IMG/VR virus record: IMGVR_UViG_3300031555_004891
Direction: 5' to 3' (one strand)
DNA from: a virus
Lineage: Duplodnaviria > Caudoviricetes
DNA: 64,000 bases
The notes below the pieces were generated by a model. The model was not told the DNA's origin. It saw only the letters and a list, made by a program, of their open reading frames with translations, and ran no database searches. This document shows positions 1,150 to 50,336 of this stretch, piece after piece. The translations under genes and the position numbers were made by a program. Positions within the stretch are counted from its first letter, which is position 1. Each line of letters begins with the position of its first letter.

Positions 1150-2577
1150 GTGCTTTAGAGATTTAATTACAATACATTACAATCAAACTACATAAAATAT
1201 ATCCTCCAGAATACACCTGTACCTATGATACCTTTTGCTAAAAATGTTTATCATTTGACAGCTGGTAATCTTTATATTTATGATAAAGATATTGTATTAA
1301 GCAGAGTAGATGCGCCATTAGATTATGTAGATAAATGTATAAAAGAAAATACTAGATTTTATGAAAATGGTACTTATATAAATGCTTACGATCACTTTTT
1401 TACAATATACCAACCATATGTTTTTGGAAAAGATTATCCAGGAATAACTACTAGATATGTCTCAGATTCTGACACTTATGATTCTAAAACACATACATAT
1501 TTAGGTAAATATATAAGAACATATAAAGCTGTTTATGATATTAATCTAATGCCTTTCTACAATTTATTTTCTAATGAATATATTACAAATTTAGACATAA
1601 AGCATGATTATGGAATAAAGCAAGCACCTTTTCATGATTTAATAAGCAAGACAAATACAAATTACAAATATTTTAGTATTCCTATAAACTTTTGTCAAGA
1701 ATATACAGTAGCTTTAGATTCTTTAACACCAGTTTCTTTAGTACCAGTTTTTATAGGTAAAAAAGGTTGTTTGCAAGAGCCTACTAGGCTTTTGTGGAGA
1801 ATGTTAAACATATTAAATCGTGAAGATTTTGGTATCTATAAAGCAGATCATGATATTTTGATGAGTAGAAATAATTATTACAGGGATGAAACAGCTTTTT
1901 CTAAACCCTTCATTTTTTAGAGTCCATGTATCGTAGGTGCTAAAGAACCAGATGTAGCTTCTGATATGTAGCTAGATCAATCTACGTTACTTAAATATGA
2001 AAAATTTTTAAGACTTATAATAAAAGTACCTATTTCTAACACATCTAGTTTAGTTGTTTTAGAGGGAAATTATAGTAATACATTACCTTTTGCAGATAAA
2101 GTTATTTCTACAAGCGAAAAAGATATAGCTCAATTTCAAAGTTATAGAGAAAGATATTCTAATTTTAACGAATATTTAAACGAAAAGCTAATAAGTAATT
2201 TAAGTTTATTGAAGATAAACGATTCTAATAATTATGCATTTTGCGGAAGATTATTTGAGTATTTAGTAAACAATGTAATTAGTAACGCTGAGCAATTTGA
2301 AAGTAATGTAATGAAAGTTCAGAAATACTTAAATTAGACACAATCAGGTATATGGTAGCCTAGATTGAGAACATATACATATAAGACTGTTAATAATTAC
2401 GCTGATGTTAGAAATTTACAAACAGTGTGGGATGCGAACGGTTTTATAGATAAAGATTCTGAAAAATTACTTGCAAGCTATTATAGAGAATGCGAAAGAC
2501 TTGCCGAGCAAGCAAATAAAACAAAAGATCCAGCTATAATAGATCAATTAAATAAATTGCTTAAATATAAAGAATAA
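1150..2577 (+). CDS. Virion/baseplate-region hypothetical protein (475 aa, code 15)
   Basis: GTG start 6 nt after GGAGGT; joins track ORFs 1225 and 2365 through 5 in-frame TAG with no TAA/TGA until 2575-2577. Confidence 0.7.
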
Positions 2578-2588
2578 GGAAATACTAA

Positions 2589-3221
2589 ATGAGCGCTTAC
2601 TCAGCATATAGTGGACTAGTAAGTTCCAATTCAAAATTTAATATGATTGAGAATTACTTATATCTATATCACATAGGTTAGAGCTCAGATTCTCAGCAAA
2701 CAGGTCAATTTGTTGTTTTACCAACATATCCAGAATCGATTACAGATACTTTAGAAGCTCAATTTGCTAGTAGCACACCTTTGAGCAGATCTGCTCCGAT
2801 ATACTCATATTCCAGTTCTGGACCTAGGAGTTTGACTATAAGATTAAAGTTTCATAGAGAAATGATGACTCAAATAAATTATGGTATAAGTAATCTTGCA
2901 GTAGAGCTTGGTGATGATTATGTTGATACTATAATTAAACAGCTGCAAGCTGTTGCTTTACCTTCTTATAAATCAGCTTCTAAAATGGTTAATCCACCTC
3001 AAGTAGCTGTTAGATTTGGAAATGAAATCTTTATAAAAGGTATAGTAAATGGAAGTGTATCAGTAACATATGAGCTTCCTATTTTATCAGATAATAAGTA
3101 TGCTCAAGTGACTGTTGAGTTTACTGTAACTGAAACCGATCCATATGATGCAGAAACAGTTGCAGCAATGGGAAGTTTTAGAGGTTTAGATAAAACCTTA
3201 GAAAAAAGACTTTATAAATAA
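2589..3221 (+). CDS. Tail tube initiator / baseplate protein (gpU/gp48/gp54-like)
   Basis: ATG 2589, one TAG; LPTYPESITD...LSRSAPIYSYSSSGPRSL pattern; position before LysM-type gene. Confidence 0.6.
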
Positions 3222-3232
3222 GGAAAAATATT

Positions 3233-3556
3233 ATGTCAGAAATTCTTCAAGATAAAACATACTTAGATTATAATTATATATGTAGATATTCTGGCTTTCC
3301 TTATTGGTATCATAGCGAAGATGAAAAATATGTTTATGGAGTAACTAGCCAATTATCGAAAAATGTGAGTTATACTATACACATTGTTAAGAATAATGAA
3401 ACATTTGATAGTATATCACTTTATTATTATAATAGTCCATTATATTTTTGGGTTATAATGGATTTTAATGGATTGCAAGATCCTTTTGAAAAACCTAAAG
3501 TTGGTAGTCAATTAAAAATTCCTACATTAGCTGGTATTTCTTATGTTGAGGTATAA
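3233..3556 (+). CDS. LysM-like baseplate wedge protein (gp53/gpX-like)
   Basis: HIVKNNETFDSISLYYYNSPLYFWVIMDFN...PKVGSQLKIP LysM-like signature. Confidence 0.75.
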   Translation: MSEILQDKTYLDYNYICRYSGFPYWYHSEDEKYVYGVTSQLSKNVSYTIHIVKNNETFDSISLYYYNSPLYFWVIMDFNGLQDPFEKPKVGSQLKIPTLAGISYVEV

Positions 3557-3559
3557 TCA

Positions 3560-4810
3560 ATGTCTATAAAATTATTAGGAAACACAACTAGAGTAGAAGC
3601 GCCTTTTGTATCAGTTAAGATAGGTAATTACACTTTTGGTACCTATAGCAAGGAAAAAGGCGGTGCAGAATATAGTTTTGCAGAAAAATATAGATACCCA
3701 AATTATATTGAGTCTTTAAGTATCGTAAAATTAAATGGTTCAGTAAATACTTACACCTTAAATATGAAATATCAAATAACAGCTGGAGATGACCCTAACT
3801 TTTTAGACAAAGTTTTTAGCTCAGTTTCTGGTTCGCGTAGAATGATTATTAGTTATGGTGATTGCTCAAGTCCAATGTATATGTATAAGGAAGAAGGTGC
3901 AACTATAACTGATGTTAGATAGAATTTAGATTTAAGTAGCTCAAGTATAAGTTATACAATAACAGCTATTAGTGATGCTTTAACTCTGCAAGCTGGTACT
4001 TTTTCATTTGGTTCCAGAACAATGAAACCTAGTGATAAAATAAAAGAATTACTATATAATAATATCTATGGTATTTTAGATGTATTCTATGGGATGAGAG
4101 ATAAAGATTTAGTTATCAGTAATAATTTAATAGCTGGTGATGATAAACCGGTTAAGCTGGAAGCAAAAACTGGTGTAACAATATGGGATTATCTAAATTA
4201 CTTAGTTTTATGTATGCAGCCAAGCAGTGATAATCAAAATTCTAATATTACTGGCGCTCGATATGTTTTAACTGTTAATGATGATTACTCAGGTGTTTTT
4301 GGTGGTCCTTATTTTTAGGTATTTAAATTAGAAACTAGTCAAAAATAGATAAATTCTTTAGATACATATGAAATAGATATAGGTTTCCCATGCATAGATG
4401 CTGTATCTAGCTTTTCTATAGATGATGATTAGACCTATTCTATTCTATATAATTACTCTAAAAAAATGAATCAGTCAGATTATGTCTATAGAATAAACAA
4501 TGATGGTATTATAGAATCTATATATTCCCCTTCTATATCGAATAACTCAAAAGAATTTAAAACAACTCAAGTAGATAAGACATGGTGGACATAGGTAACT
4601 CAATATCCTGTTAAAGCAACTTTAACAGTAAAAGGTTTATTAAGGCCATCAATGCTTATGTCTTACATAAAAATAAACACATATTTTTATGGCTAGAAAC
4701 ATAACAGCAGTGGGTTATATACAATAACAAAATAGACAGATAATATATCAAAAGATGGGTTTAAGACGACCTTATCATTAATAAGAATTGGAAGCGATTC
4801 GGAGGTTTAA
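3560..4810 (+). CDS. Baseplate hub protein (gpD/gp27-like), 416 aa code 15
   Basis: 7 in-frame TAG, ends TAA; C-terminal SGLYTITKQTDNISKDGFKTTLSLIR typical of hub proteins; synteny. Confidence 0.65.
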
Positions 4811-4811
4811 T

Positions 4812-5240
4812 ATGCTAACTAGAGCTATAGTTGAAAGAGTGCTATCTGAGTATACTTATAAAGTTAGAATTCCTATTTTTGATAGGATTTAGGGAGATGC
4901 AGAACACACAGATTTTGCTAACTTAAGAGAAGCTGTAGCTTGCGTCCCTAAAGGGATTAATAATAGCATAAACGAGGGTGATATTGTTTTTGTTATGTTT
5001 GAAAATAATAGTATGACTGACTTAGTAATTATTGGTCAGCTATATAGAGAAGCCATAACAAACATACCTGATAGTGCTATTAATTGTAGAGCACTAAATG
5101 TAAGCGAAAAAGTACAATTACCAAAAGATATTATGATTGGAGAAATCGATTACTCAAAATTATTTATGTTAGCAAACTTAACGTCTGATGTATAGGCTTA
5201 GCTAGATGATCTAGCAGCTAAAATCGATGCTCTAAAATAA
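4812..5240 (+). CDS. Baseplate spike (gp5/gpV OB-fold-like)
   Basis: ATG 4812, 3 TAG, TAA 5238-5240; YKVRIPIFD...EGDIVFVMFENN...IIG pattern; synteny. Confidence 0.6.
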
Positions 5241-5250
5241 GGGGGTATAA

Positions 5251-5625
5251 ATGAACTCAATAGCCTTTCCAGAAATGTTTAGTTCTGCTAGTACAAATCT
5301 GGTATATGATAGAGAAGCTACTGCACAAAATCTGCTATTGCTTTTAAAATCGGATAAGACGAGTTTTTTCGGAGATCCATATTTTGGTACAACATTAAAA
5401 AGATTAATTTTTGAACAAAACAATACTGTGTTGCGAGATTTAGTTATAGATACTGTTTACTCGACTATTGCTACATATATGCCTTAGATAAAAGCAGATA
5501 GAAAAAATATAACAGTTACATCGGATGGAACAACACTTTATTGCAATATAAAAGCTACAAACATGATCGATTTTAATTTAGAAGACATGAATCTAGCTTT
5601 ATTTAATTTAGAGGAATTAGGATGA
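5251..5625 (+). CDS. Baseplate wedge subunit gp25/gpW-like
   Basis: NLLLLLKSDKTSFFGDPYFGTTLKRLIFE motif; reads through TAG 5485 to TGA overlapping next ATG. Confidence 0.75.
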
Positions 5626-8600
5626 AACATACAAATATAAACATCAATTCTTTATCTTACACAAATAAAGATTTTAGAAATGTCATGGAAGAGCTTTTAG
5701 CTCTAGTTCCTGAGCTTACTAGCAGATGGAATCCAAATGACTCTAATGAATCAGACCCTGGTGTAGCATTATTAAAACTTAAAGCATTTATTGCTGATAA
5801 ACTAAACTATAATATAGATAAAAATGTTTTAGAGAATTTTCCTACATCTGTCACTCAGAGAGGTAATGCTCAAAAACTTTATGACCTTTTAGGTTATGAC
5901 ATGCAGTGGTATAGATCAGCCACTGTTCCTGTTGTATTTAAGTATGTGCAAGGTGAAAATCTCGAAGAAATAAAAGAAAATTCGAGTGATATTTTATACA
6001 AAATACCTAGATTTACAACCTTGAAAGATGATACAGGCTCTATAGTCTTTACTCTTCTACAGGATGCTATTATAGAAAGTTCTGGAGAATCCACTACAGA
6101 TATAGAAGTTCTAGCTATGGAAGGACCTATACAATCTTACACAATAAATGGGCAAGAAAAAATTACAATACAGAATTTAGATTCTGATTATAGATTATAT
6201 TTTACAGAATCTATGGTTGCATAGAATGGTATATTTATTTCAAATGATCCTACTATGCAAGATTTATGGACTAGAGTATCAAACTTAGAGACATCAGGTT
6301 TAAATACTAAAATATATAAATTTGGTGTTTTACCTAACTCTAATACTTGCTACGTAGAATTTCCTCAAGACGCTGCTAATATTTTCGGTGGTGGTATTTA
6401 TATCAAATATATATTATCTACTGGTGCAGCTGGTAATATAAGTTTAGGAACACTTACAAAATTACAATATAGCTTGATGGCTAAGGGCGGTATTGATGGT
6501 GTTTATTATCTAAAAAGTGATGGTAGTTACAGTGCAAGTAGTGATGAGATTGATCTATCTTTATTTACTCAAGTCACTAATTATCAAAGCGCTACTAATG
6601 GTTCTAATCCAGAAACTTTAGAAGAAGCATATAGAAATTATAGACGTACTATTGGTACCTTCAATACTTTAGTAACTACAAAAGATTATGAGTCTGCTAT
6701 ATATAATTCTGGAGCAGTATCTAACGTCGTTGTTTCTGACAGAACAGATGATCATGAAAGATCCTATAAAGTAAAAACTTTTGATATTAATGGTAAGAGT
6801 GAGCGTCTAGTTAACGTTAATGTAGAAGATACAAGTAAAGTATTGATGAATGCGTTCAACTTAGTAGTATATGCTTTAGATAATGCTACGTCTGTAAGTA
6901 CTGCTGATAATTATAACACAACATTTAAAACAAAGAATGATACAATGCGTCTAGCTCAAAAATCAATAGATGATTGTAAAGCTATTTAGCATGATTGGAT
7001 AAATAATAGTTAGTAGACAACCTTCCTATATAAAAATCTATATGAATTAAGCGGTAAAATATTAACTTATCAAAAAATATCTTCTATAGAAGCTAAAGAA
7101 ATAGAGCAAAATGTACAAAAAGCTTTATATAAAAAGTATAATAGTAGAAATATAAATTTCGGGGAAGCTTTAGTTTACGAAGAAATAGTTAAAACAGTAA
7201 AATCTGCTGACCAACGTATAAAAGAATTTTTGTTAGATGAACCAACGATAAATACTTATAGCATGACCGCTGTAGAGAATGGTGGTAGCAATGAAGACTT
7301 GCAAGCATCTCCATTGTCAAGAGATCAAAAAATAGATATAATAGCTAAATCTATATTAGCAGGTGTAACACCATATTGTATATTTGACGACTCTGCTTCG
7401 TTAGATTTCTTTATGCAACCAGCTGAGAAGTATGCAGTTAATGCTGGAAAGGTTGAAAAAGTTACAAATACAATGTGTGATGCTGCTTCATCATATATTC
7501 AAAATATAGCTACAGTTACTACTGGTGTTAATATGAATGTAACAACTGGTGATAGAAAGTTGCTTAAAAATGAAACAGTACAGCTTTATGCACCAAATTT
7601 TGTTACTATAAAAACCTTATCCACATATTTATATGTCGCTTTTAAAACGCTTGATTCTAATAAAACAATATTAAAAAATAGCATCTATCAACTCAGAGAT
7701 AATGAATATGTATATGCTGCGGAAAACAAAAATGACCTTTTAAGTATGCTTGGTGTAGCTATAACTAATGGAACAACCGCAGGATTATCTACTTATACAT
7801 TTGGTCCAGGAAAAATAATTAAAACATCTTTTGATCTTCCAGCATATGGTGGAAATGAGTCAAACATAAAAAATCTTGAAACAACAAATACTATAGAAGT
7901 TTAGGAAGAAAATGCTGTTATATTAAACAATAAAGAAAAAGCAATATATGCTTGCTGGTCATTAAATGAGTCTGATAATGAGTTATTTAAATCAGATGAA
8001 ATCAAATATTTTTGTTACTCAGATGAAGAAAAAACTTCTAAGATAGATTTAAGGAAAGATGGTAATTATTATAAACTTGTGAAAGCAGCAAAAATTAATG
8101 GTGAAGATAAAGTTGCAGGATCAGTGATTGATAAATCATCAGTATACTGTTATCTATCTAGAATTTTAAAGAATGGTGAATATTTTATCTACACAGACTT
8201 TGGTAAATCATTCATTGCTCTATTAAGCTCTGGCACTAGATTAAAAATTCAAGGTTTAGTATCTAACTTAGAAAATAAAGACTGGACTTGCAACTTACCT
8301 GATATGTCAGATTTAAATTCTAATGGTGTTGCTGCAGATGTTACATGGAAACCTTTAGGTAAAGGTTATGATTTTTCTGTGCAAGAAATGCAAATAATAA
8401 CATTAGGTCAAGATGCTGTTTTAAGTTTTGATAATAAAGAAATTTTAAATCCAGATTATGATCCTGATGATGAAGATTCAGAGGAATATATTATTGCAGG
8501 GATGACTCTAAGTAATACACCAATAATGTTAACAGCAGATCTTCAAAAGTATTTTAAATATAAAGTAGATCAATTTGAAGATTCTTATTTAAGATTATCA

Positions 8601-9638
8601 ACTATTGATTTAGATAATAGCTCTAGTGTAGATACAGATAATTATTCGTGGTATGCTTTTTGTAGTTTACAATTAATATGTTCGAGTGATTCCCCTCAAA
8701 CCTTACAGAAAGATCAATATGTAATTTTTACATTAAGTGGTAATACCAATTATGCTGCGGGGGCTGGAAACTCAATTAAAACTAATATACCTGTTGCATT
8801 AACTGGCGGTTCGAATCAATCAGCAGAACTTTTACTAAGCGATGGTACGGTATCTAAGTCTTTGTGTGCAAGTATTTATAAAAATCCTTCAGATGATATA
8901 TTTTGGCATAAAGCGAATTCTAGTGATACTTCTACTAATGTAGAATCAGATTCTGTTTCGGAATCATATTCTAATGATACTGTTAGTTTAAGTATGCAAA
9001 ATAAAGCAACAACAGATGTAAAGCATAAATTTTTATATGAAGCATGTGTAAGTCCCACTTTTTGTAAATCATTTCTTCCTGTTTTGATACAGTCAAGTAT
9101 AACAGATTCTGATGCAAAAATTACAATTAAAGTTAAAACAGGTACAGAAACAGGCACATGGTCATTTATTAAAGAGGAGCTTTCTACAAGTGACGCTAAA
9201 GACTTAAAGCATTCTGATAATGTCATTTTTCTTAGGTTACCTGATGAAATTTTTTCAAAGAAAGATCCAGATTACATTTATGCTTAGAAAAATCTACAAA
9301 TATCAGTTACTGATGTAGCTAAAGATGAGATCATTAATGTAACATTATATAATCCAAATAAGTTTATAGATTATAGTGATATAGTAGCTGATTATGAGTT
9401 AGATGGTGGTGCTGGCAATGCGGTTTTAACTAGAATAAAGCAATTGACACAAATAAATAAAGATGATCTACCACCTTTTGATTTTACATATAGAGTAGAT
9501 GAAGGTATCGCTATAAATGATCCAACAGATCCAGAAAGCTTTTTTGATACAAATCACATCAAAAATAAGTTTGTTATATCTCAAATAAACACTTCAACAA
9601 TCTCAAATATAAGTGTAGCTAAACAAAGTAGGAAATAA
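5622..9638 (+). CDS. Large baseplate wedge protein (gp6/gpJ-like N-terminus), 1338 aa code 15
   Basis: YTNKDF...ESDPGVALL...LLGY motifs; five track ORFs in one frame separated only by TAG (6, including tandem TAGTAG 7011-7016). Confidence 0.75.
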
Positions 9639-9643
9639 TAAAA

Positions 9644-10477
9644 ATGTTTAGATTTGAAAATAATCTTCCAAAATGTTTTGTTGATAATTCTAGAGATTTT
9701 TAGCTTATGGCTAGACTAGATGATACTATATTTATGGGTCAACGAGCTGACATAGCTACAATGACTAACTTAAATACATCTAGTAAATGTAAAAATATAT
9801 TTCTTGATCTATTAGCAAAAAAAGTTGGATTTTTCACAAAAGAATATTTAGATGATGATGTTTTGAGAGCTATCATAGGTGCTTTTTAGAGTACACTTAA
9901 ATATAAAGGTACAAAGAAAGGTATTGAAATGGCTGTTAAAACTATCTTAAAATGCGAAAATTCTATAGAAGAGCCTGTTGTAAATATTGTTAGTAGTTTA
10001 GATGAAGCAACTGGACTCGATCATTATGTGTAGATATTAACACCTGTAGATATAGTAAATAAGATTGCATTAAAAGAATTCTTAAGGTATATATTACCAT
10101 TTGGATACATATATATACTGAGAGTATATAAAGAGCCAGAAACAGACTTACTTACAAAAATTAATCCAGCTAATATAGTTACTGTTTATAAATCTAGTAA
10201 TTATAATCTAGGAACAATTAGATCTAGTACAGATAATATGATAGATATCAATCCTGATATCGATTATGATAGCTCATCAGTTGAAGAAGAAACTGGTATC
10301 GAATCACAAGCTAGTCATTTGTTAGGCACTTATGATTTAGGTCTTATTGTAAGTAATGATGACTTAGATGGATCTAATAAAGGCGAAAGCAATAAAATAC
10401 CTGATTTTGATGATTACTTAAATCTTAGTAAAGATGATACTAAAAAGACAGTAGAAAAAGTATATAGTAATGAATAA
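9644..10477 (+). CDS. Baseplate/tail protein (P2 gpI-like)
   Basis: LDLLAKKVGF...KYKGTKKGIE motif; TAG read-through joins 9707 and 10238 fragments. Confidence 0.6.
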
Positions 10478-10481
10478 GGTC

Positions 10482-10514
10482 AAGGAATCTGATATTATTA
10501 CTATCAGATTCCTT
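10482..10514 (+). terminator. Hairpin, possible terminator
   Basis: AAGGAATCTGATA-7nt-TATCAGATTCCTT perfect inverted repeat; short T tail. Confidence 0.5.
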
Positions 10515-10548
10515 TGCTAAATTTAGAGTAGATAATAAAGGAAACAGT

Positions 10549-11073
10549 ATGACTAACTTGAATAATATTGATAATATATCATATCAAGGTATTGTAACTA
10601 TAAAAAAAGTAGATACTAAGTTTAATATCATTAAAGATTCTTTTAGAATTAAAAATAATGGTACAAAGCATCTTTTTAAATACCTATGTGATTGTTTAAT
10701 TTAGAATTATAATCCAAGCAACTCTCCAAGATATCTTGATGCTTCTGCGGAAAAATTAACACTTTCAGATAATGATATAAAAGATTTCACAAGCAATGTA
10801 ACAAATAGAAGCTTATTATCCAATATAGAAGTTAAAGAGAGTTATAATAATTATAATGTAATATTCTCTGGAATAATTCTGTATGATCAATTGAGAGATA
10901 AAACCGCGGGGTTAAAGTCTGTAGTATTGTTTCCTAATAAAAATATTCAAGACATATCTAAACCATTAGCATTTATAAATATAGTGCCTGAAGAAGCAGA
11001 AGATGGAATAACAATATCTGCATCAGAAGTCTTGATCATAGAGTGGGAACTGCAATTTAAAAATGCTTCTTAA
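10549..11073 (+). CDS. Hypothetical virion protein
   Basis: ATG after AAGGA, one TAG, ends TAA; contains track ORF 10891. Confidence 0.6.
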
Positions 11074-11088
11074 TAATAGGGAGAAGAA

Positions 11089-11787
11089 ATGGGTTTTATA
11101 AATAGTGCTAATATAAAAGTATTTCCAACAACATAGAGATAGACTGAAGACGCATCAGCTAGGATGATGACGGAATTTAATCTAACATCCATTATAAATA
11201 GATTAGTAGATAAAAAATGCTTTGTTATTTCTGGTGATAGATTAGATGATAAAGGATATTTTGTAATAGATAGTGGTAGATTTGAATTTAATATGTTTGG
11301 ATATTATTTTTCAATATCAAATATTTATGAAATATTAAACTCAATACCTATTGGTGATACTACTCTTGGAAACATTGCAAAATTAAAATTAGGTACTAAC
11401 GCTATACTTTTTGAAGAAGGTGAGGATAAAATAAACACACCTAATTTACATATTGTGGCTAAGATTTCAATATCAGGTAATGACAAAAGTATAAATAATA
11501 TGTCTTGGCAAAGACTTAATGGTACTGATAAAGATGGTAAATATGAAGGAATAGAATTCGCTCTCGAATCTGCTACTAGATTTAATGAAAATAGCTATTA
11601 TACGGATGACTCAACAAAAGTCTTTTCAATTCTAGAATTGATAGAGAGACCATATACTGGAGAAGATTCTAACAAATAGAATATAACTACAAAATATAAT
11701 TTAAGAATACCTGCAAATAGTAAGGTTAAATTTGCTACTAGCTCACTTAATCAATCAATTAGAATTGATGATGGTAGATTAGATTAA
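11089..11787 (+). CDS. Hypothetical protein (structural module end)
   Basis: ATG after GGGAG; 3 TAG; TAA 11785-11787. Confidence 0.6.
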
Positions 11788-11796
11788 AATAAATAT

Positions 11797-11841
11797 AGAG
11801 AACCATGGAAAAGTTTTAGAAATCCATGGTTCTTTTCTTTT
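11797..11841 (+). terminator. Rho-independent terminator
   Basis: AGAACCATGGA/TCCATGGTTCT stem followed by TTTCTTTT. Confidence 0.7.
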
Positions 11842-11876
11842 ATGACCTGTATAAATATATGTAGGAGATTTTAATT

Positions 11877-12203
11877 ATGAAACATTCGAATAAGAAAGTA
11901 GATTACATAATTTGTCCGCACTGTGGAGCAGAATATTTACCTAGTGAAATATATTATCCAGATAAATTTTTAGGTAAGCCTCATGATATAGATAAAGTAA
12001 ATAGTGGTAAAATAGATAATTTCTTAGGAAAGTCTATGGATTTAGAAGAAAGTTATCAATGTGATTTTTGTGATACAAAATTTAGAGTGACTGCAAAAAT
12101 TCAATTCAAAGTTGAGCAAGTTTCTAAGTATGATATGTCAAAAGCATATGTGACACCATTATTTGAAGAAAAATTGACTCTAGAAGAAGGGATAGCTGAA
12201 TAA
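11877..12203 (+). CDS. Zn-finger hypothetical protein
   Basis: CPHC and CDFC pairs; AGGAG RBS. Confidence 0.65.
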   Translation: MKHSNKKVDYIICPHCGAEYLPSEIYYPDKFLGKPHDIDKVNSGKIDNFLGKSMDLEESYQCDFCDTKFRVTAKIQFKVEQVSKYDMSKAYVTPLFEEKLTLEEGIAE

Positions 12204-14965
12204 TGATAAAAATATCAGAGCAAACAGCTAAAAAAGTTCCTGGACTAACAGCATTAGTAGTAGAAAGTCCATACAACCCACTAGTTGTAGATGTTCTGAA
12301 AAACGCTCAAGGATCAGATTATGATGCTAAAACAAAGTAGTGGGAAGTTCCAATAACTAACCTTTCTTATTTATTAGATCATTTTTCTATAATAGATGAT
12401 ATAGAATTAAATTTACTTGAAGATAAAAAAGCTAAAAATATAATTTTTTCACAAAAACCTGATGAGCCTTTTTAGATGTTTAAGCATCAAGCAGAAGCTG
12501 TAGAGTTTGGATTAAATAATCCTAAATGGTTATTACTTGATGCTCCCGGGCTTGGTAAAGCGCTTCCTTTAGATACACCTGTTTTAACACCTAATGGATT
12601 TAAACCTATCGATGCTATACATGCTGGTGATATAGTTTTCGATGATAAGGGAAACCCATGTAAAGTTATTGAAGAATTTTATCACGAATCTTTAGACATG
12701 TATAAATTAGATTTTACAACAAAAGATTCTATAATTTGCTGCAAAGATCATTTATGGTAGGTTAGATACAATAAAGGTGTCTGGGATAAGTGTGATAGAA
12801 AATATCATCTAACAGAGTTCAATGAAGCTCGACCTACTAGCTGGCTTATTGAAAATGATAATTGGAAAAAGAATTGTCTAAGAATACCATTTTGTGAGCC
12901 TATAAAATTTCCTAAAAATGAATTGCCTATTGATCCATATCTTTTGGGCTGCTTAATTGGGGATGGATCTTTTAGAAAATATATAAGTTTAACTTCGAGC
13001 GATCAGTTTATTATTGATCAATGTATACATAGCTTAGAGCAGCTTGAGGGAGATGCATTAAAAATAAGGCTTGATGGTAAATATAGTTATATATTTTCAA
13101 CAAAATCAAAGAAACCCTCTAAATTAAAGCATGAGTTAGATAAGCTTGGTTTATTAAATCATTTGTCTTACACAAAATTTATTCCTGATATTTATAAACA
13201 TAGTTCTGTAGAAGATCGTATAGCTCTGTTGCAAGGATTAATGGACACTGATGGTACAGTAAGTTCAGTAAAAACTTATAAGGGAAAATTATCTAATAAA
13301 GCATGTTTCGGAACCTCTTCTAAACAATTGCGGTACGATTTTGAATTCTTAATACAATCTTTAGGTGGTTGGTGTTCAACACGAGAGTTTACAGCTTCTT
13401 ATCGAGACGCATCTGGTTAGAAAAAATAGTGTGCTACTCATTATACAATTTCTATACATTTACCTGATAACTCTATCTTATTTAGATTGCCTAGGAAGAA
13501 AAATTTAGTGTCTAAAAGATATAATAAGCCTAGAAGAAAAATAAAGAATATTACATATGTTGGTAAGCAACCTGGAAAATGCATATCTGTAGACAGTCCA
13601 TCACATTGTTATCTAACAAAAAATTGCATTGTTACGCATAACACCTTATCATTGATTCGGCTAGCAGAAGAATTACATAATCAAGGAAAGATAGAGCATT
13701 GCTTAATAGTTTGTGGTATAAATACGCTTAAAAGAAACTGGCAAAAAGAAATATAGAAATTTAGCACATTAAGCTCTAGAATAATTGGTCAATACATAAG
13801 TTCAAAAGGTAAAGTTTATACCAGATCTGTTAAAGATAGGGTCGAAGAGCTAAAAAATCCTTTAGAAGAGTTTTTTATTATTATAAATGTGGAATCACTC
13901 AGAGATGATGATATAGTAAAAGCTATAAATAAAGGTAAGAATAAATTTGATATGATAGTTGTTGATGAGATTCATACCATGAAATCTCCGACCAGCTCTC
14001 AAGGAAAAAATTTACTAAAAATAAATAAAGCTAAGTATCAAGTAGGTGCTACTGGAACATTATTACTTAATGATCCTTTAGATACTTATATGGCTCTAAA
14101 ATGGATAGGTGCAGAACATTCTACATTAACTAAATTTAAGTATTATTACTGCGAATATGGTGGTCCTTTTGGAAATATGCTAGTTGGATTTAAAAATATG
14201 GATCTACTTAAATACCAACTTGAGCAAGTTTCTTTGAGAAGAAAAAAAGATTTACTAAATCTTCCAGATAAGAATATAATAGATGAGTTTGTTGATATGG
14301 AAACAGCTCAAAGTAATTTTTATGAAAATATAAAGAAAGGTATAGTAGATCAAGTAGATAAAGTAAAAATGTCTACAGCTAATTTGCTAGCTATGGTTAT
14401 AAGATTACGTCAAGCAGCAGAATGTCCAAATGTGTTAACTACAGAGAACATACCATCTGCTAAAATTGAACGTTGTATAGATTTAGCTAAACAAATATTA
14501 TCTGATCCAGATGAGAAAGTAGTTATTTTTAGTTGCTTTAAAGAATCAATAAATTTTATATATAAATAGTTAGCAGAGTTTAATCCATTGCTATGCACTG
14601 GAGATATTCCAGATGATATTATATCAAATAATGTCGATATGTTTCAAAATGATTCTGAGCATAGAGTTATAGTATGTACTGGACAAAAAATGGGAACTGG
14701 TATAACTCTAAATAGAGCGCATTATGCTATTTTTATAAATACACCATGGACAGCAGGTGTGCAAGAGCAATGGGAAGATCGTATATATAGAATCGGTACA
14801 AAGCAACCAGTATTTATATATAGATTATGGGTTAAAGACACTATAGATGAGCGAGTTTTAGACATTCTAAATACAAAAGGTGCCTTGAGTGATTATGTCA
14901 TAGATGACGAAATGACAACTCAGCAATTAGCTATATTAAGACAATATATAGAAGAATTAAGATAA
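12203..14965 (+). CDS. SNF2-family helicase containing an intein (920 aa precursor, code 15)
   Basis: Walker A APGLGK|T, DEIH, TGT, QWEDRIYRIG motifs; five track ORFs in one frame separated by TAG only (7 TAG). Confidence 0.9.
12560..13642 (+). mobile_element. Class 3 (Ala1, WCT) intein with LAGLIDADG homing endonuclease, 361 aa
   Basis: Starts ALPLDTPVLTPNG, block B CCKDHLW, block F KCISVD, ends CIVTHN|T; LLGCLIGDG and LLQGLMDTDG motifs; inserted between K and T of Walker A. Confidence 0.9.
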
Positions 14966-21173: not shown

Positions 21174-23924
21174 ATGGTAGATTCATTGTGGGGTGATGAT
21201 TTCATTATAAAGAAAACCCCTAAAGAAGCTAAAAAGATAATTAAAAAAATATCTGAGCCAAAAGATTCTTCTTCTGTTGTAAAAAAAGCCGTAAAGTCCA
21301 AAAAACTATCCGTCCATGAAAAGTTAGCTATTATTACCGAGAATGTTAAAAAGATTCTCGGTAGATACGCTGACAACACTCAAGTGATAAGGACACGGCA
21401 AGAGTTAACTGATTATATCGACATAGCTATAAAAAATAATGTAATTGCGGTCGATACTGAAACGAATAACAGTCTTGACCCCATCACATGTAAATTGATG
21501 GGTCCCTGTTTATATACACCAGGTTTAAAGAATGCTTATGTACCATTAAATCATGTTAACCCAGATACTTTAGAAAGATTTGATTGGCAATTAACGGAAG
21601 AAGATGTAAAAGAAGAATTAAGTAGACTTACAGATACTAAAATAATAATGCACAATGGTAAGTTCGACTATTCTGTAATAAAATGCACCACAGGTGTTGA
21701 GTTAAGCATTTATTGGGATACAATGATTGGTGCAAAAGTTTTAGATGAGAATGAGAGGTCAGCTGGTTTGAAACAGCAGTATATCGAAAAGATAGATCCA
21801 TCTATTGAAAAATACTCTATAGATCACTTATTTGAAGATATAGAGTATGCGATGGTTGACCCAGAAATATTTGCTTTATATGCTGCAACAGACTCTTATA
21901 TGACTTATAAGCTTTATGAGTGGCAAAAAGATAAATTTGAGATACCTGGTCACCAGCGTTTATATAGCCTTTTTAGAAATGTAGAGATTCCTGTAATAAT
22001 TCCTATAGCTGAAATGGAAATGACTGGTGTAGAAGTAGATCAAGAATATGCTGAGTTGTTAAGTAAAAAGTATCATAAGAAATTAGATACAATCGATCTT
22101 AAAATAGCTGCAGAGTTAGCTACATTAAAAGATAAAATAGCTGAGTGGCGTTTAACAGAAGATGCTAATTTCCACCCGATAGCAACAAAACCTAACAAAT
22201 ATGGTGAGTATTTAGAGCAAAAATCTAAATCAGAGCAATTAGAAGATCCTATAAACTTAGCCAGTCCAACACAGTTAGCTATATTATTCTATGATATATT
22301 AAAATGTCCACCTGTAGATAAAAAGAAACCTAGAGGAACAGGTGAAGCAGAATTAAAAGCTATAGAGCAGAAATTAAAACTTCCTATTTGTAGCCTTTTA
22401 GTAGAAAGACGTGAATGGGTAAAATTGATAACTACTTACATAGACGTAATTCCGGAACTAGCAAAAAGATGGCCTGATGGTAGAGTTCGTACTCACTTTA
22501 ACCAATACGGGGCAGCTACGGGTCGTATGAGTTCGAGTGATCCGCTGAACCTGTAGAATATACCATCACATAATAAAGAAATCCGTATGTTATTTAGAGC
22601 TGCTGATAATTGTGTATTAGTTGGTAGCGACTTCAGTTTATAAATCTGTTGGCTGAAGTAAAACTTACTTAAACGGGGAACTCTCATTGAGACAATCCCG
22701 TGCCAAATCAATCTTAAGATTGATAGTGCGTAGAGACTATCGAAAAGGTAGGCGTAAGCTGAGTAACTGAGTAGAGTAGGCTTCAAGCGAAGTCGAAACA
22801 GTAAGCAACTAAAAAGTTGAAGAGTTAGTCCGACACTTCTAGTGATAGAAGAGAGGTGTAGCGAGCCTCAAAACAAGAAGCAACAAGAACCTAGATTACT
22901 CTCACAATACTCAGGTGATGAGAATATGATTAATGCTTATAAAGCAGGTAAAGACCTTTATGCTACTATTGCCTGTGGTGTATATAAAAATACGTATTGG
23001 GATAACATGGAGCATTGGGAAGATGGATCACCTAATCCTGAAGGTAAGAAACGTAGAGGTAATTGTAAGAGCTTACTTTTGGGGATAATGTATGGACGTG
23101 GTGTAGCTTCTATAGCTGAACAAATTAAAGGTACAGTAGAAGAAGCACAAAAAATTATCGATGATTTTTACACTGGATTTCCAAAAGTAAAAGAATGGAC
23201 TGATAAAACTCAAGCAGATGCTAAAAAGACTGGTTATGTAGAAGATTTATGGGGTAGAAGACGTAGACTTACAGATCTTATGCTTCCTAAATATACTATT
23301 AAAGACCTTAATGCTGCTAAACTTGATTTTAATCCTATCTTACACGCAGAAGGAAAGTTCTCGAAAAAAGAAAATCCTTCTATACAGAAATATAAAGCAG
23401 CACTTGAAAAAGTTCGCGGTAGAAAAGAATATGAAAAGCTAAAAGAGCAAGCATTGAAAGAAAATATAGAATTGCATGATAACACAGGTTTTATAGCTCA
23501 GGCTGAGAGACAATGTGTTAATGCTAGAATTCAGGGTGGTGCTGCTTCCATGACTAAAGTAGCTGTTATAAAGCTGTATAATGATAAAATTCTCAGAGAT
23601 TTAGGATTTAAGTTAAATATAGCCGTGCATGATGAGTTAATTGGTGAGTGCCCTAAAGAAAATGCAGATGCAGTAGCTGATAGACTTTGTGCTATAATGA
23701 AAGGTGCTGCTGAAGACGTTTGTGATGTACCATTTAAATGTGACCCTACAGTTGAGCATTGTTGGTATTTCTCAGATTTCTGCGATACTGTTCAAAAAGA
23801 ATTTAAAGAAGTTTTGAAAAAGTATAATAATGATTGGAATTCAGCATTTAATTATATGGTAGAAACTCATGAAGAATCAACAATTGATCAATTACATGAG
23901 CTTTTAGATGAAATAGCTGTATAA
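21174..23924 (+). CDS. polA: Family A DNA polymerase, join(21174..22637,22881..23924); no 5'-3' exonuclease
   Basis: Exo I DTET, HNGKFD, TGRMSSSDPLNL[TAG=Q]NIP, motif A DFS|QQEPR split by intron, motif B KSLLLGIMYG, motif C VHDE. Confidence 0.92.
22638..22880 (+). mobile_element. Group I self-splicing intron (243 nt, no ORF)
   Basis: Exon CTTCAGT pairs with IGS GCTGAAG (22652-22658) with U-G at splice site; TGTTG pairs with 3' exon CAACA; P3 CTTACT/AGTAAG; P7 GACTA/TAGTC; terminal G at 22880; removal restores DFSQQEPR. Confidence 0.92.
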
Positions 23925-23934
23925 ATAAATAACA

Positions 23935-23988
23935 ATGCGAAGTTCACACTCGAATATCCTTCGCATAATAAAATAAAACTTTAAGGAG
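23935..23988 (+). promoter_or_regulatory. Putative preQ1-I-like riboswitch
   Basis: Stem ATGCGAAG/CTTCGCAT, loop TTC...ATC, A-rich tail AATAAAATAAAAC running into SD AAGGAG; upstream of a queuosine-precursor transporter. Confidence 0.55.
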
Positions 23989-23997
23989 ATTTTTAAA

Positions 23998-24777
23998 ATG
24001 AGTAAAGTAAAAAATTGGTTTAAGTAGGAATGGAATGAGATCAAAACACTTTTAAGTAATGTTAACCCTTTAGTTATGACCTTTTTTATTCTAGGTGTTG
24101 TGGCTATGAATTTGCTAGCTAATAAGTCTATTGATTTAAGTTTTCTTCCTGGAAATGATGTTAATAACGGTGAGTTTGGTTGGTTAGCTTTAGATTGTGG
24201 CTTTTTAATCTCATGGTTATGCTTTTTTTCAATGGACAATATAGCTAGACGTTTCGGTCCTAAAGCATCAACCCAAATGACCATTGTTGCTATAGTTGTT
24301 AATTTAATTGTTTGTGGAATATTTCTGCTAGCTGGTATAATTCCTGGAACATGGGGTGAAAGTTATGTAGAAAATGGTGCGATTATAAATACTGCTTTAG
24401 ATAACACAATATCTGGAAGTTGGTATGTATTAATGGGATCAACTGTAGCATTTATTTGCTCAGCAATAGTACATGGGTTAGCTAGTACAGCTATAAGCAA
24501 AATCTTTAAGGATAAAGAGACACTTAAAGCATACGCAGTATGTAGTGCAGTAGGAACTAGCTTAGGCCAATTTGTAGATAATATGATTTTTGCTTTAATT
24601 GTAAGCTTAAACTTTTTTGGTTGGAATATTTTACAATGCATAATGTGTTCAATTACTGGTATGATATTTGAGTTTCTAATGAGTGTAATTTTTGTTCCTA
24701 TTGGTCATAAGATATATAAGAATGATCAAGAGCGAGCAAATAGAAAAGATGAGGTAGGATTCGAATGCGAGTTTTAA
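23998..24777 (+). CDS. yhhQ: VUT/YhhQ-family queuosine precursor (preQ0/preQ1) transporter
   Basis: Multi-TM; MNLLANK, DNIARRFGPKA, GSTVAF, GQFVDNMIF motifs; ATG after AAGGAG, TAG at codon 10. Confidence 0.8.
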
Positions 24778-25424
24778 TTACAGGAACATCTAAAGGAATA
24801 GGAAAAGCTATAGCTGAAAAATTTATTTATGAGCATGCTGATTGGGAAATCATTGGCTTTGATAGACTAGATTCTACTATAGATAAACCTAATTACAAAC
24901 ATTATAAAGTAGATGTTAGAGATGTAGAAAATTACCCAGATATTTCTAATATAAATATTATAATTAACAACGCTGGAACTCAGAATGAAGATGATATTAA
25001 CATTAACTTAAAGGGTGCGATTTCTATTACCGAGCGTTATGGAATCCAACCTGGAATTAAAAGTATCTTAATGATTGGGTCAGCGAGTGCACATACTGGT
25101 GATGAATTCCCTCAATACGTTGCTTCGAAAGGTGGTTTAATAGCTTACACAAAAAATGTAGCTAGAAGAATTGCTAAATATGGGGCAACCTGTAACAGCT
25201 TAGACTTTGGAGGTGTTTTAACCGAGTTAAATAAACCTGTTATGGAAAACAAAGAATGCTGGGATAAGATAATGGAAGTAACAGCATTAAAGCGTTGGAT
25301 GGAACCAGAAGAGACAGCTGATTGGGCTTATTTTGTTACTGTAATCAACAAAGGTATGACTGCGCAAACGCTTCTTATTGATAATGGGGAAGCTTCGATT
25401 GTAAACAATTTCCAATGGTGTTAA
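24765..25424 (+). CDS. SDR family NAD(P)-dependent oxidoreductase
   Basis: TGTSKGIG, NNAG, catalytic S...YVASK; overlaps transporter stop. Confidence 0.9.
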   Translation: MRVLITGTSKGIGKAIAEKFIYEHADWEIIGFDRLDSTIDKPNYKHYKVDVRDVENYPDISNINIIINNAGTQNEDDININLKGAISITERYGIQPGIKSILMIGSASAHTGDEFPQYVASKGGLIAYTKNVARRIAKYGATCNSLDFGGVLTELNKPVMENKECWDKIMEVTALKRWMEPEETADWAYFVTVINKGMTAQTLLIDNGEASIVNNFQWC

Positions 25425-25431
25425 AAAAATT

Positions 25432-25482
25432 AGTCAACTAGGTTAAAATCTAGTTGACTTTTCTTTTCAAATTTATTATAAT
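25432..25482 (+). promoter_or_regulatory. Terminator hairpin fused to sigma70-type promoter
   Basis: AGTCAACTAG/CTAGTTGACT stem plus T tract; TTGACT(25454)-N17-TATAAT(25477). Confidence 0.75.
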
Positions 25483-31102: not shown

Positions 31103-31172
31103 TAATTTTATTAAATATGAAAGCACTGTTTTTGTATAAATATAATGAAACATAGACATTTTGGAGGAAGTA

Positions 31173-32234
31173 ATGGAAAAACTAATCAATCAAGATTGGA
31201 CTAATCCTTTTACTAATTGTAAAATAGGTGAAGATTATTATGGAATTATAGCTGCTGGCGAAGGTGTTAAAAATGTAAAAATGCCTGATGGGACTATTCT
31301 TGATGCTAGCGATGTTAAGAGAGATTTGGGTTATCCACAACTTTTTGCTTGGAATTTAGAAGGAAAAGCCTTGTTGGAATGGGTTGAGTATTTAGATAAA
31401 AATCCTGATTGTCCCTGTAAGTTAGTTGTTGACTCAGGTGCGTATTCTATGTGGAGCCGTGGAAAAGAATTTGATATGGATGAGTATATCAATTTCTTAA
31501 ACAGTAATGATGTTATAGAAAAAGCTTTTTGGGTAGCAGAAGCTGACGTTATCCCTGGAAGTATGGGTGTAGATCCAACAGAAGAAGAAAGAGCAGCAGC
31601 ACCTGAAAAAAGCTGGGAAAACTTCTTATATATGGTAGATAGAGTTAAAATTCCTAAGAAAATTGTACCTATTTTCCATCAAGGTGAAGATATCAAGCAT
31701 TTGAGACGAATGTTAGCTTATAGATATCCAGATGGTGATTTCATTCCATATATTGGAATTTCTCCTCGAAATGATGTCCATGTTAATGAAAAATCAAAAT
31801 GGTATGAGTATATTTGGAAAGTTATTTATGAAGATTGTGCAGCTTTAGGTCGGGATATTCCATTGACTCATAACTTTGGTATGACTACTATAGCTCTCAT
31901 GGAGCAGTATCCTAGTTACACATCAGATTCGACTTCATGGATTAGAAGCGCATCTTTTGGTAATATAATGATTATAGTAAATGGTAAAATAAAAACTGTA
32001 TACGTAAGTAATCGAGGATTAGATAGAGATGAGCACATCAATAATCAACCTAAAGCATTAAAAGATGCTGTAGAAGATTGGTGTAAGAAATTAGGCTATG
32101 GCTACACTGTAGAAGCTTTAGTAAATGATGATAATGGAAGCTTGAGAATGATTTGGAATCTTCTAGTTTTAGATCAATGGAGAAAAACCTTCAAATATGA
32201 GGGTACACAATCGTTTAAGACCGAGCTTTGGTAA
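31173..32234 (+). CDS. dpdA: DpdA-type DNA 7-deazaguanine transglycosylase (TGT fold)
   Basis: VVDSGAYS, ADVIPG, VPIFHQGED, HNFGMT, DSTSW motifs; ATG after GGAGG; ends KTELW. Confidence 0.8.
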   Translation: MEKLINQDWTNPFTNCKIGEDYYGIIAAGEGVKNVKMPDGTILDASDVKRDLGYPQLFAWNLEGKALLEWVEYLDKNPDCPCKLVVDSGAYSMWSRGKEFDMDEYINFLNSNDVIEKAFWVAEADVIPGSMGVDPTEEERAAAPEKSWENFLYMVDRVKIPKKIVPIFHQGEDIKHLRRMLAYRYPDGDFIPYIGISPRNDVHVNEKSKWYEYIWKVIYEDCAALGRDIPLTHNFGMTTIALMEQYPSYTSDSTSWIRSASFGNIMIIVNGKIKTVYVSNRGLDRDEHINNQPKALKDAVEDWCKKLGYGYTVEALVNDDNGSLRMIWNLLVLDQWRKTFKYEGTQSFKTELW

Positions 32235-35228: not shown

Positions 35229-36395
35229 ATGACTAAGCTTGAAAAATTAGCATTAGAAATTGATTAGGATTTATTCTCAGATCTTTATTTGAAACAAAAT
35301 AAATCACAGAAGGATTTAGCGCAATATTTTAATGTAACAGTAAGAGATATTGAAGACTTATGTTTTTATTTCCACGCTATTAAGTTAAAGAAAAATTCAA
35401 AATTAGCGAATATTTTAAATAACTTAGATGCTGAAGCATTTATATCTGATAGACAGGTGTTAACATCAGCTGAACTAATAGTAAAATATGACTTAAAAAC
35501 ACATTATTAGTTATAGCGACTTGTTTTATGGACACATTGTTCTCTAACTGTTGAGCAGAAAAATCAAATAACAACACGAAAAATTCGGGAACAAACTGCA
35601 GATAAGAAATTATAGAATGTCTAGAAGTGTAATCAATCAAAAATAGAGCATTATGGATCTCTAGAAGAATGTAACAAACAATCTGTGATTAAAGTTCGAA
35701 AAACAAAACTGGATAGGTACAATGATCCTAAATATAATAATAGAGAAAAATCGAAGCAGACATGTTTTATTAAATATGGCGGACCCTCAAGCATGAATTC
35801 AGCAGAGGTTGTTTAGAAGGGTATGTAGACTAGAGAAAAACATGCTGGATCAATAGCTGCATCATATTCAGCAGGAAAGCTAAAGTAGCAAAAAACACTT
35901 AAAGAAAGATATGATGTAGATTATTTTGTACTACATCCAAAATGTAGATCTAAAATATAGCACACTAAGAATAGTAAACCAAATAAACGGTTCGCTAAAA
36001 TTTTAATAGAAAATAACATTGAGTTTGATCAAGAGTTTTTCCTTGAAAATAAATTTTATGATTTTAAAGTAAAAAATTATTTAATAGAAATAAATCCAGC
36101 GCCTACACATAATAGTTCTATTAATGTATTTGGATCTGATTAGCCTTTAGATAAGTACTATCATAGAAATAAATCTATGTTAGCTTTTAAGAATAATTAT
36201 ATTTGTATTCATGTTTGGGATTGGACAGATATAAATAGCGTATTAAGATTATTATGTACAGATATTTCATTAGATAAAATAATTTTCACAGAACCTTCTG
36301 TATATTATTATAATATAACAAAAAAGAAACTAACAGATATGTCAGATCCCAATGCTGTATAGATTTGGGATGATGGATTAAAAATAATGGAGTAA
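35229..36395 (+). CDS. Free-standing PD-(D/E)xK-type homing endonuclease-like protein (388 aa, code 15)
   Basis: 11 in-frame TAG; KQTCFIKYG / KTLKERY repeats, YDFKVKNYLIEINP..THNS, YHRNKS, CIHVWDW; GGAGG RBS. Confidence 0.7.
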
Positions 36396-48477: not shown

Positions 48478-50336
48478 GATTTAAACGAGTTATAATTGAA
48501 AATTTCTTATCTATTGGTACTGCTGATATCAATCTTGAGGATAGAGGCTATTGTCAAATTATTGGTGTTAATAATAATCCCGCAGATCTGGCGAAGTCAA
48601 ATGGTAGCGGTAAAAGCAGCCTCATGTCAGCTATTGTTTGGGCTTTAACAGGTGAAACAGCGAGTGGTGTTAAAGATGTAGTTAACATGTTTAATCCAGG
48701 TGGTACATCAGTAGAATTACAGTTCACTGCTGATAATGATTCTTATGTTATTACCAGATATAAAGAGCATAAGAAGTTTAAAACTGACTTGAAAATTTTA
48801 GTTAACAGTGAGGATAAATCAGGAAAAGGTATTCGGGATAGTCAAAAGCTTTTAGAATCATATTTACCAGATTTAACACCATCACTTATTGGCTCTGTAA
48901 TTATTTTAGGTCAAGGCTTACCACAACGTTTTACTAATAACACACCTTCTGGAAGAAAAGAAGTCTTAGAAAAATTATCTAAGTCAGATTTCATGATAGA
49001 GGATTTGAAAAAACGTTTGGTAGAAAGAAAAGCAACCTTAAATAAATTGTTGCGTGAGCAAGAAGACAACATTTTAGCAGCTAACACCCAAAAAACTACC
49101 TTACAAACTCAAATAACGCAATCAGAACAGCGCTTAGCAACTTTAGAAGATCCTGCTATTTATTCTGATCTAATAAAGCGCACAGAAGAAAAGATTTCTT
49201 ATATAGATAATAAAGTTCAAGAATTAAAAACAGATCTTGACTTATATAGAGATACTTATCAAAAAGCTTCTTTGCAGAAAGCTGAAATTGAAAAAGATAT
49301 TGCTGAAAGAAGAAATGCAGTAAATGTAGAGTTCTTAAATGCTAAAAATGAGATAAATATAAGAAAGACTGAATTTCAATCTGCAATCGCAAATCTAACT
49401 AGAGAAATTACAAAAGCAAAATCAATCAAAGATACTTGCCCTACATGCGGTAGAAAATTTGAAAATGTTTATATTCCAGATACTACAGAGCAAGAATGTG
49501 AGGTAGAATCGTTAAGAATTAAAATAGCTGATTTAGATAAAATTTTATCTGAAGTAGTTTCTAGTAATAATGCTGAGATGGATTCTTTTGACGCAGAATT
49601 ATCAGAAAGGACTGAAGCATTAACTAGAGAGCTCTTAGAAACTCAAGCACATATTTCAAGTTTAGAGAAAGCTATAAGCGCACAACAGTATGAGAGAAAT
49701 GTTGAGCAAACATCATTGACTAAATATGAAAATCTTAAATCTACATATTATGCAACAGTAGATGCTATAAGCAGCACTATTGCGAGCAATAAAACCGCAA
49801 TTGCAGAATTAGAGCAAAATCTGGTATATTATATTGATAGTAAGGAAAAGCTAGAAGTCCGTCTAGAAGTAATAAATAAATTTACAACTATTACTACTAG
49901 AGATTTTAGAGGGTACTTGCTTAAAAATGTAATAGAATTTATTGATAAGAAGTCAAAAGATTATTGCAGATTTATTTTCGATACGGATAAGTTAGACTTT
50001 ATTCTTGATGGAAATAATATAGATATCAGATATTGTGATAAGCAGTATGAATCTTTATCAGGTGGTGAGAAACAGAAAGTAGATTTAATTGTACAATTTG
50101 CTATCAGAGATATGCTCTGTCAATTTTTAGGTTTTGCATCAAATATTTTAGTATTAGATGAGATATTTGATAATCTGGATAGTATAGGTTGTGATAGAGT
50201 TATTAATATGTTGTCTCAAAATTTGTCTGATATTGATAGTGTTTTTATTATATCGCATCATCAAGACCTTGCATTACCTTCTGACTCTACTATTACAGTT
50301 ATTAAACAAAATAACGGAGTCAGCACGGTACAATGA
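48468..50336 (+). CDS. sbcC: SbcC/Rad50-like (gp46) ATPase
   Basis: NGSGKS, CPTC hook, LSGGE, LDE. Confidence 0.9.
   Translation: MQLRFKRVIIENFLSIGTADINLEDRGYCQIIGVNNNPADLAKSNGSGKSSLMSAIVWALTGETASGVKDVVNMFNPGGTSVELQFTADNDSYVITRYKEHKKFKTDLKILVNSEDKSGKGIRDSQKLLESYLPDLTPSLIGSVIILGQGLPQRFTNNTPSGRKEVLEKLSKSDFMIEDLKKRLVERKATLNKLLREQEDNILAANTQKTTLQTQITQSEQRLATLEDPAIYSDLIKRTEEKISYIDNKVQELKTDLDLYRDTYQKASLQKAEIEKDIAERRNAVNVEFLNAKNEINIRKTEFQSAIANLTREITKAKSIKDTCPTCGRKFENVYIPDTTEQECEVESLRIKIADLDKILSEVVSSNNAEMDSFDAELSERTEALTRELLETQAHISSLEKAISAQQYERNVEQTSLTKYENLKSTYYATVDAISSTIASNKTAIAELEQNLVYYIDSKEKLEVRLEVINKFTTITTRDFRGYLLKNVIEFIDKKSKDYCRFIFDTDKLDFILDGNNIDIRYCDKQYESLSGGEKQKVDLIVQFAIRDMLCQFLGFASNILVLDEIFDNLDSIGCDRVINMLSQNLSDIDSVFIISHHQDLALPSDSTITVIKQNNGVSTVQ

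Follow-up and report, generated by a model that had tools for sequence, protein, structure and literature searches.

We analyzed a 64 kb window (the whole stretch of 64,000 nucleotides under study) of the IMG/VR virus record IMGVR_UViG_3300031555_004891, assigned to Caudoviricetes, and focused on the leader between polA and a gene for a Vut_1/YhhQ-family transporter. We predict that positions 23935-23988 are the aptamer and expression platform of an enlarged translational riboswitch related to the preQ1-I class and nearest to its type I, and we put the probability of this reading at about two in three. By analogy with known preQ1-I switches, the leader most likely senses preQ1 or preQ0 as a translational OFF switch. 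Sequence comparisons indicate a genuine, conserved cis-regulatory RNA that is found specifically at the 5' end of a two-gene unit encoding the transporter and a short-chain dehydrogenase.

The leader consists of a stem (P1) with eight of eight perfect pairs, a loop, an A-rich tail and a Shine-Dalgarno (SD) sequence (Table 1). P1 starts 10 nt past the polA stop codon, and its outermost (eighth) pair is confined to the window's clade. The tail is made up of the A-rich stretch AAUAAAAUAAAA (23967-78) and C23979. An earlier note, made from the sequence alone, had described an 8-bp stem, a 16-nt loop running from UUC to AUC, an A-rich tail and AAGGAG, all of which proved exact. It had also argued that the stem is not a + strand terminator; there is indeed no U tract after the stem on the + strand, and the terminator scan agrees. 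RNAfold predicts that the stem forms. The nested-structure ensemble contains P1 (-8.9 kcal/mol) and leaves AAGGAG 84-94% unpaired, so the default state would be ON. An alternative anti-SD pairing of AUAUCCUU with AAGGAGAU was dropped, and its energy evaluation was not used.

Comparative analysis of the leader

Three phage relatives (L043, L044 and L045; transporters 98-80% identical) differ in the flanks but retain the stem and the whole loop. Their stems show a single change, A to G, which yields a G.U pair and can do so on the + strand only. In phage relatives farther away whose transporter gene also follows polA, the leader position is always occupied by a hairpin with an A-rich tail and an SD sequence; two of these relatives (L014 and L008) differ by a compensatory stem change. 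The same leader architecture, with several loop classes, was found at 80 further metagenome transporter loci. A G-C closing pair is present in all 56 unique transporter leaders; their loops start with U in 55 cases and end with C in 55.

We aligned 20 distinct leaders of the window's class from phage contigs and Bacillota genomes. Their common layout is a 7-bp P1, a loop of the form UUC-RNN-CUC-NAA(U)-AUC, an A-rich tail of ~13 nt, usually a C, and then AAGGAG. The loop has 15 nt, or 16 nt in the window's clade. Eleven loop columns are invariant, UUC (23943-45) and AUC (23956-58) are unchanged throughout, the top four P1 pairs are sequence-invariant, and the closing pair is G-C in 20/20. The outer P1 pair occurs as AU, UA or CG and the third as CG or AU, both compensatory, and the fifth as AU or GU. 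Of the P1 cells in the alignment, 90.6% are paired, compared with 44-50% when the partner strand is slid by 1-3 columns, and the covariation score was reached by no shuffle. Because the lower stem covaries and tolerates G.U, the element appears to act as RNA and not as DNA. The tail up to AAGG measures 15-16 nt in this variant (P1 of 7-8 bp), against 9 nt in the class with a 5-bp P1. Among the unique transporter leaders, whose sequences are not independent, tail length correlates with P1 length (rho 0.32, p = 0.018) and with loop length (rho 0.69).

A covariance model of the variant, built from 20 homologous leaders, scored the leader at 65.4 bits in the 64 kb window, where the next best site reached 12.5 bits. 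Since the model singles out this site and P1 carries compensatory changes, it is conservation, not folding energy, that exceeds chance. Loop conservation in homologous leaders, which the earlier note had named as a check, was borne out, as the loop is near-invariant from phages to Bacillota. Over 151 order-level genomes, with 38 candidates scored in each, the variant model returned the seed genome only, and we draw no inference from this. An exact-loop scan of IMG/VR gave 45 matches, which we attribute to chance because every one lacks the stem; a looser loop pattern matched only two contigs that were already known. Megablast, tblastn and blastn searches against GenBank phages found relatives of neither the region nor the transporter nor the leader.

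We also scanned one genome per prokaryotic species with a degenerate DNA pattern of the loop and then required a stem and a tail. Among the matches listed, the loci with both belong to small-genome Bacillota metagenome-assembled genomes from gut and rumen (Erysipelotrichaceae, Acholeplasmatales, Bacilli and Clostridia), and the complete genes downstream of bacterial pattern loci carry Pfam Vut_1 in 10/10 cases. One bacterial genome has a second copy of the leader, again ahead of a transporter gene and a short-chain dehydrogenase gene. The transporter of the window is 34-40% identical to the bacterial ones, while the RNA core stays fixed. In every locus of this leader class, bacterial or phage, the gene behind the transporter encodes a dehydrogenase homologue (47-70% identity). 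Judged by these comparisons, leader, transporter and dehydrogenase make up a cassette that is common to bacteria and phages. A tRNA TGT is present in each of the five bacterial carriers examined and a true QueC in none, so we interpret them as queuosine salvagers; one has a marginal QueF match.

Similarity to preQ1-I riboswitches

The hallmarks of preQ1-I type I are UU after the 5' strand of P1, UC before its 3' strand, a tail C, a G-C pair as the floor of the pocket and an A-rich L3 (PMC11625349). All of them are present in the window leader. With type I switches such as that of Carnobacterium antarcticum (RF00522), it shares the G-C closing pair, UU(C), UC, the A-rich tail, the tail C and the 3' SD. 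The known type acts at translation and has a queuosine-precursor gene downstream (PMC11625349, PMC8752633); for the window we infer the same action. The base before the specificity cytosine is U in type I and A in types II and III, and the UU motif occurs in types I and III (PMC11625349). In the window the candidate for the specificity base is C23958, with the roles of individual bases assigned by analogy with solved preQ1-I structures (PMC11625349, PMC8752633).

The variant differs from type I in its size. Its loop is 3-4 nt longer and contains the invariant internal CUC, its P1 has 7-8 bp compared with 5 bp in the Rfam PreQ1 model, and its tail (~13 nt) is longer in step. It also has C-C/UUU-AAGG where type I has CUA. 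Type III, represented by E. coli yhhQ, a known member of the preQ1-I regulon, serves the same transporter family (COG1738/Vut_1), and the E. coli switch buries the SD and is translational (PMC10622847). However, type III has the smallest and most stringent model, AC before the 3' strand of P1 and an almost exclusive occurrence in Pseudomonadota (PMC11625349), whereas the window variant has UC at that place, is larger and occurs in Bacillota and their phages. Type II-like metagenome leaders with the loops UCUCUUGnnAAC and UUnCCUUGCnnAAC share its position, G-C closing pair, final loop C, A-rich tail and CAAGGAG. They have AC before the 3' strand of P1, and their loop can be seen to pair with the tail through CUUG:CAAG, a complementarity that is absent from the window variant.

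Related leaders connect the variant to the family. The Rfam PreQ1 model gave weak scores at the same position ahead of homologous transporter genes in L104 (26.8 bits), L121 (25.2 bits) and L148 (22.3 bits), and in L114 PreQ1 was the best-scoring family (16.3 bits), again ahead of a homologous transporter gene. The variant model in turn matches L121 at the position of its PreQ1 hit (22.2 bits). The leader is most likely a new variant of preQ1-I that lies outside the family as Rfam defines it. The conserved loop, the covarying P1 and the tie to Vut_1 genes support the preQ1-I-like layout proposed in the earlier note, and its suggestion that a stem and loop longer than canonical might mark a variant agrees with our data.

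In two of the close relatives the variant leader is preceded by another, smaller hairpin of preQ1-I-like form (L044 60-170 and L045 2800-2915), with the loop UUCGAGAAAUC. The stem of this hairpin reads GACGG/CCGUC in L044 but GAGGG/CCCUC in L045, a compensatory difference, and an A-rich tail and then a true terminator follow. The Rfam PreQ1 model scores this small hairpin weakly, at 14.7 bits. By their layout, these two loci may hold tandem transcriptional and translational switches. The 15-nt loop of another locus, L360 (UUCGAGCUCGAAAUC), equals UUCGAGAAAUC plus four bases, which suggests an origin for the enlarged form.

Genomic context

Table 1 Features of the leader and its surroundings in the window
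Feature	Position	Strand	Remarks
polA stop TAA	23922-23924	+	within CTGTATAA (23917-23924)
Extended -10-like motif TGTATAAA	23918-23925	+	overlaps polA stop; 10 nt ahead of P1
P1 5' strand AUGCGAAG	23935-23942	+	closing G is G23942; sequence and RNAfold
Loop UUCACACUCGAAUAUC	23943-23958	+	16 nt; UUC first, AUC last
Loop, UUC	23943-45	+	
Loop, ACA	23946-48	+	variable
Loop, CUC	23949-51	+	invariant
Loop, G	23952	+	
Loop, AA	23953-54	+	
Loop, U	23955	+	extra base
Loop, AUC	23956-58	+	
P1 3' strand CUUCGCAU	23959-23966	+	sequence, RNAfold and covariation
A-rich tail AAUAAAAUAAAAC	23967-23979	+	candidate L3; last base C23979
Shine-Dalgarno AAGGAG	23983-23988	+	9 nt ahead of ATG 23998
Vut_1/YhhQ-family transporter gene	23998-24777	+	259 codons; Pfam PF02592, E = 9.7e-16
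Short-chain dehydrogenase gene	24765-25424	+	Pfam adh_short; 13-nt overlap with transporter gene
Terminator-like hairpin	25432-25459	+	ends the transporter-dehydrogenase two-gene unit
DpdA-like DNA transglycosylase gene	31161-32234	+	phrog_887 'queuine tRNA-ribosyltransferase', E = 1.1e-43; ~6 kb downstream of transporter

The Pfam assignment of the downstream gene upholds the earlier view of a queuosine-precursor-type transporter. ATG 23998 is its sole start with a good SD, and its codon 10 is an in-frame TAG (24025-24027). The N-termini of transporter homologues align across this TAG, which places it within the gene; in one phage homologue (L001, 42% identical) the alignment begins at the residue right after it. 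Position 24027, where the earlier note had ended its region, is therefore not the end of a leader peptide but the end of a codon read as sense. The dehydrogenase is an uncharacterized enzyme with a putative role in salvage. A different leader precedes the transporter homologue in L001 (2870-2980) and in L165. It has a strong SD and an 8-codon mini open reading frame, whose stop lies inside an 8-bp hairpin followed by a U tract, and QueC is encoded 3 kb downstream in the L001 genome. From its sequence, this leader looks like a leader-peptide attenuator.

The -10-like motif overlapping the polA stop may belong to a wider promoter class. TGTATAA occurs 23 times on the + strand and 10 times on the - strand of the window (expected ~17 +/- 4 per strand). 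About nine of the + strand copies lie 10-35 nt ahead of SD-bearing gene starts, that of the DpdA-like gene (31133) among them. With the form (C/T)TGTATAA(A), these copies are at 11848, 16525, 20203, 23918, 29998, 31133, 35207, 37946 and 54605. We consider them a candidate promoter class common to the transporter unit and the DpdA-like gene. Similar TGTATAA(T/A) motifs lie upstream of the leaders in L002, L043, L045, L014 and L008. A sigma-70 scan, which requires a -35 box, did not list the TGTATAAA motif. If the motif acts as a promoter, as we infer, the transcript would start a few bases past it.

Many frames in the window that end in TAG carry on in the same frame, and reading TAG as a residue joins them into long genes (e.g., 5622-9638 and 12203-14965). 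In PolA, the TAG takes the place of Q in the family-A motif NLQNIP. These features of the sequence indicate that TAG stands for Gln in this phage. In-frame TAG codons, up to 11 per gene, occur in the regions 1150-14965, 21174-22643, 23998-24777, 35229-36395, 50333-51187 and 57552-58664. The genes for DnaB, primase, ligase, RecA, topoisomerase, clamp loader and Mre11/Rad50 are free of them. No tRNA genes were found in the 64 kb window.

The window covers the part of a large phage genome devoted to replication and DNA metabolism, with genes for an SNF2 helicase, DnaB, primase, PolA, ligase, RecA, a type II topoisomerase, clamp loader and Mre11/Rad50. Relatives of its PolA are on IMG/VR genomes of 130-165 kb, several of which are rated complete with terminal repeats. 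PolA lies in two frames, 21174-22643 and 22842-23924, ~200 nt apart (22644-22841); it is unsplit in L045 and L361 (833 and 945 aa), and the split may reflect an intron. The SNF2-type helicase gene (12203-14965) has seven TAG codons and a LAGLIDADG-like domain inside (residues 340-388).

The phrog_887 family, which identifies the DpdA-like gene, is present in 5/5 related phage genomes and in 0/14 control cellular genomes. Pfam TGT did not detect this gene in the window and matched none of the five related phage genomes, a false negative given the phrog_887 matches. QueC was not found in 4/5 related phage genomes. The DpdA-like enzyme is the likely consumer of the imported base, and its gene here and in the related genomes backs the earlier proposal that the base is needed for the DNA modification of the phage itself.

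Discussion

We propose that without ligand P1 would be formed and AAGGAG free, so that importer and dehydrogenase would be made. Accumulating preQ1 or preQ0 would bind between C23958 and the G23942-C23959 closing pair, with the A-rich tail docking along the minor groove of P1. The 3' end of the tail and the first SD bases would be drawn to the loop, perhaps through CUC:GAG pairing, and initiation at ATG 23998 would decrease; hiding of the SD on ligand binding is suggested by analogy with translational preQ1-I switches. The imported base would most likely supply the DpdA-like enzyme, in which case the switch would match import to pool. Because codon 10 is TAG, the importer would be complete only once TAG is read as Gln, and this codon would be a second, independent gate on the importer.

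Several observations weigh against an enlarged preQ1-I riboswitch. Folding of the 111-nt leader stretch is no better than that of shuffles (RNAfold z = -1.05, 29/200 shuffles as good), so the case for the leader rests on comparison. The Rfam PreQ1 model (RF00522, gathering threshold 39 bits), whose match the earlier note had expected to be informative, detected neither the window nor 32 related loci at the gathering score. At E<=10, in stretches of 111-271 nt, the window and the other variant members were again unmatched, with an estimated score below ~13 bits. The loop has 15-16 nt compared with ~12 nt in type I (U6 to C17 in Can numbering, PMC8752633). The tail C is absent in L002, L360 and L361, and in the window three U's separate C23979 from AAGG. 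One close transporter homologue (L359, 77% identity) lacks the leader altogether, as its start lies 12 nt past a dCMP deaminase gene (L359 535-547).

The P2 pairing adds to these points. In the candidate CUC:GAG pairing of loop and SD both sides are invariant, hence there is no covariation. The sole candidate for a covarying P2 pair joins the fourth loop base to the one that follows the tail C (G-C, A-U or G.U) and is seen in three clades only. Non-canonical contacts make up most of P2 in the solved type I structure, for which a single Watson-Crick pair has been hypothesized (PMC8752633), and little P2 covariation is therefore expected. Two other pairings were rejected: GG:CC between loop and tail suits most bacterial members and fails in the window, L002 and L093, and an internal loop helix UUCG/CGAA is present in some members and mismatched without compensation in 13/20.

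It is unlikely, though worth serious consideration, that the same fold and logic serve another ligand, such as queuine, preQ0 only, or a substrate or product of the dehydrogenase. The variant is linked to the transporter-dehydrogenase cassette in loci of this loop class, homologous transporters elsewhere have other loop classes at the leader position, the loop has 3-4 extra conserved bases, including the invariant CUC, and the Rfam PreQ1 model fails. Riboswitch variants with a changed ligand are known for the guanine class (PMC11625349). However, the bases that read the guanine face in solved preQ1-I structures are kept, namely the C before the 3' strand of P1, the first loop U and the G-C floor, and all three preQ1-I types bind one ligand despite differing consensus models (PMC11625349). 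We regard as similarly speculative a distinct subclass, unseen by the libraries, with a pocket rebuilt for a non-preQ1 substrate or product of the cassette, in which large TAG-recoded gut phages would have captured cassette and switch to meter the base supply for the DpdA-made modification.

We consider it quite improbable that the leader is a conserved hairpin without ligand sensing, serving as a protein site or in the stability or processing of the cassette mRNA. In favor of this, neither the loop nor the top four P1 pairs vary in sequence, which would also hold for a protein site, the pseudoknot pairing is only a candidate, and some members have the partial internal UUCG/CGAA pairing. That pairing, however, is broken in most of the aligned leaders, the element is common to phages and diverse Bacillota, the surroundings of the cassette showed no conserved regulator gene, and the A-rich tail is conserved together with its fixed distance to the SD. 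A chance hairpin or a polA terminator, which the modest folding score and the position just past the polA stop might suggest, is very improbable given the missing U tract, the lack of any terminator-scan call at this site, the P1 covariation, the variant-model score, the Vut_1 association, the same sequence ahead of transporter genes that do not follow polA, and the separate true terminator upstream of the leader in L044 and L045.

As in the window, YhhQ homologues occur together with DpdA in phages with 7-deazaguanine DNA modifications (PMC6884629), a paper in which the word riboswitch is absent. Among the papers that our literature search covered, none joins preQ1, riboswitch, bacteriophage and DpdA. 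If our preferred reading of a preQ1-I-related switch is true, the leader would be a virus-borne metabolite-sensing RNA wired to the supply of a DNA modification, and the phage itself would read the 7-deazaguanine pool of its host. It would define a preQ1-I-like variant missed by Rfam that recurs in queuosine-salvaging Bacillota of gut and rumen. The variant makes it testable how far the smallest known riboswitch fold can grow and still function, and what the cassette of a transporter and an uncharacterized dehydrogenase imports and converts.

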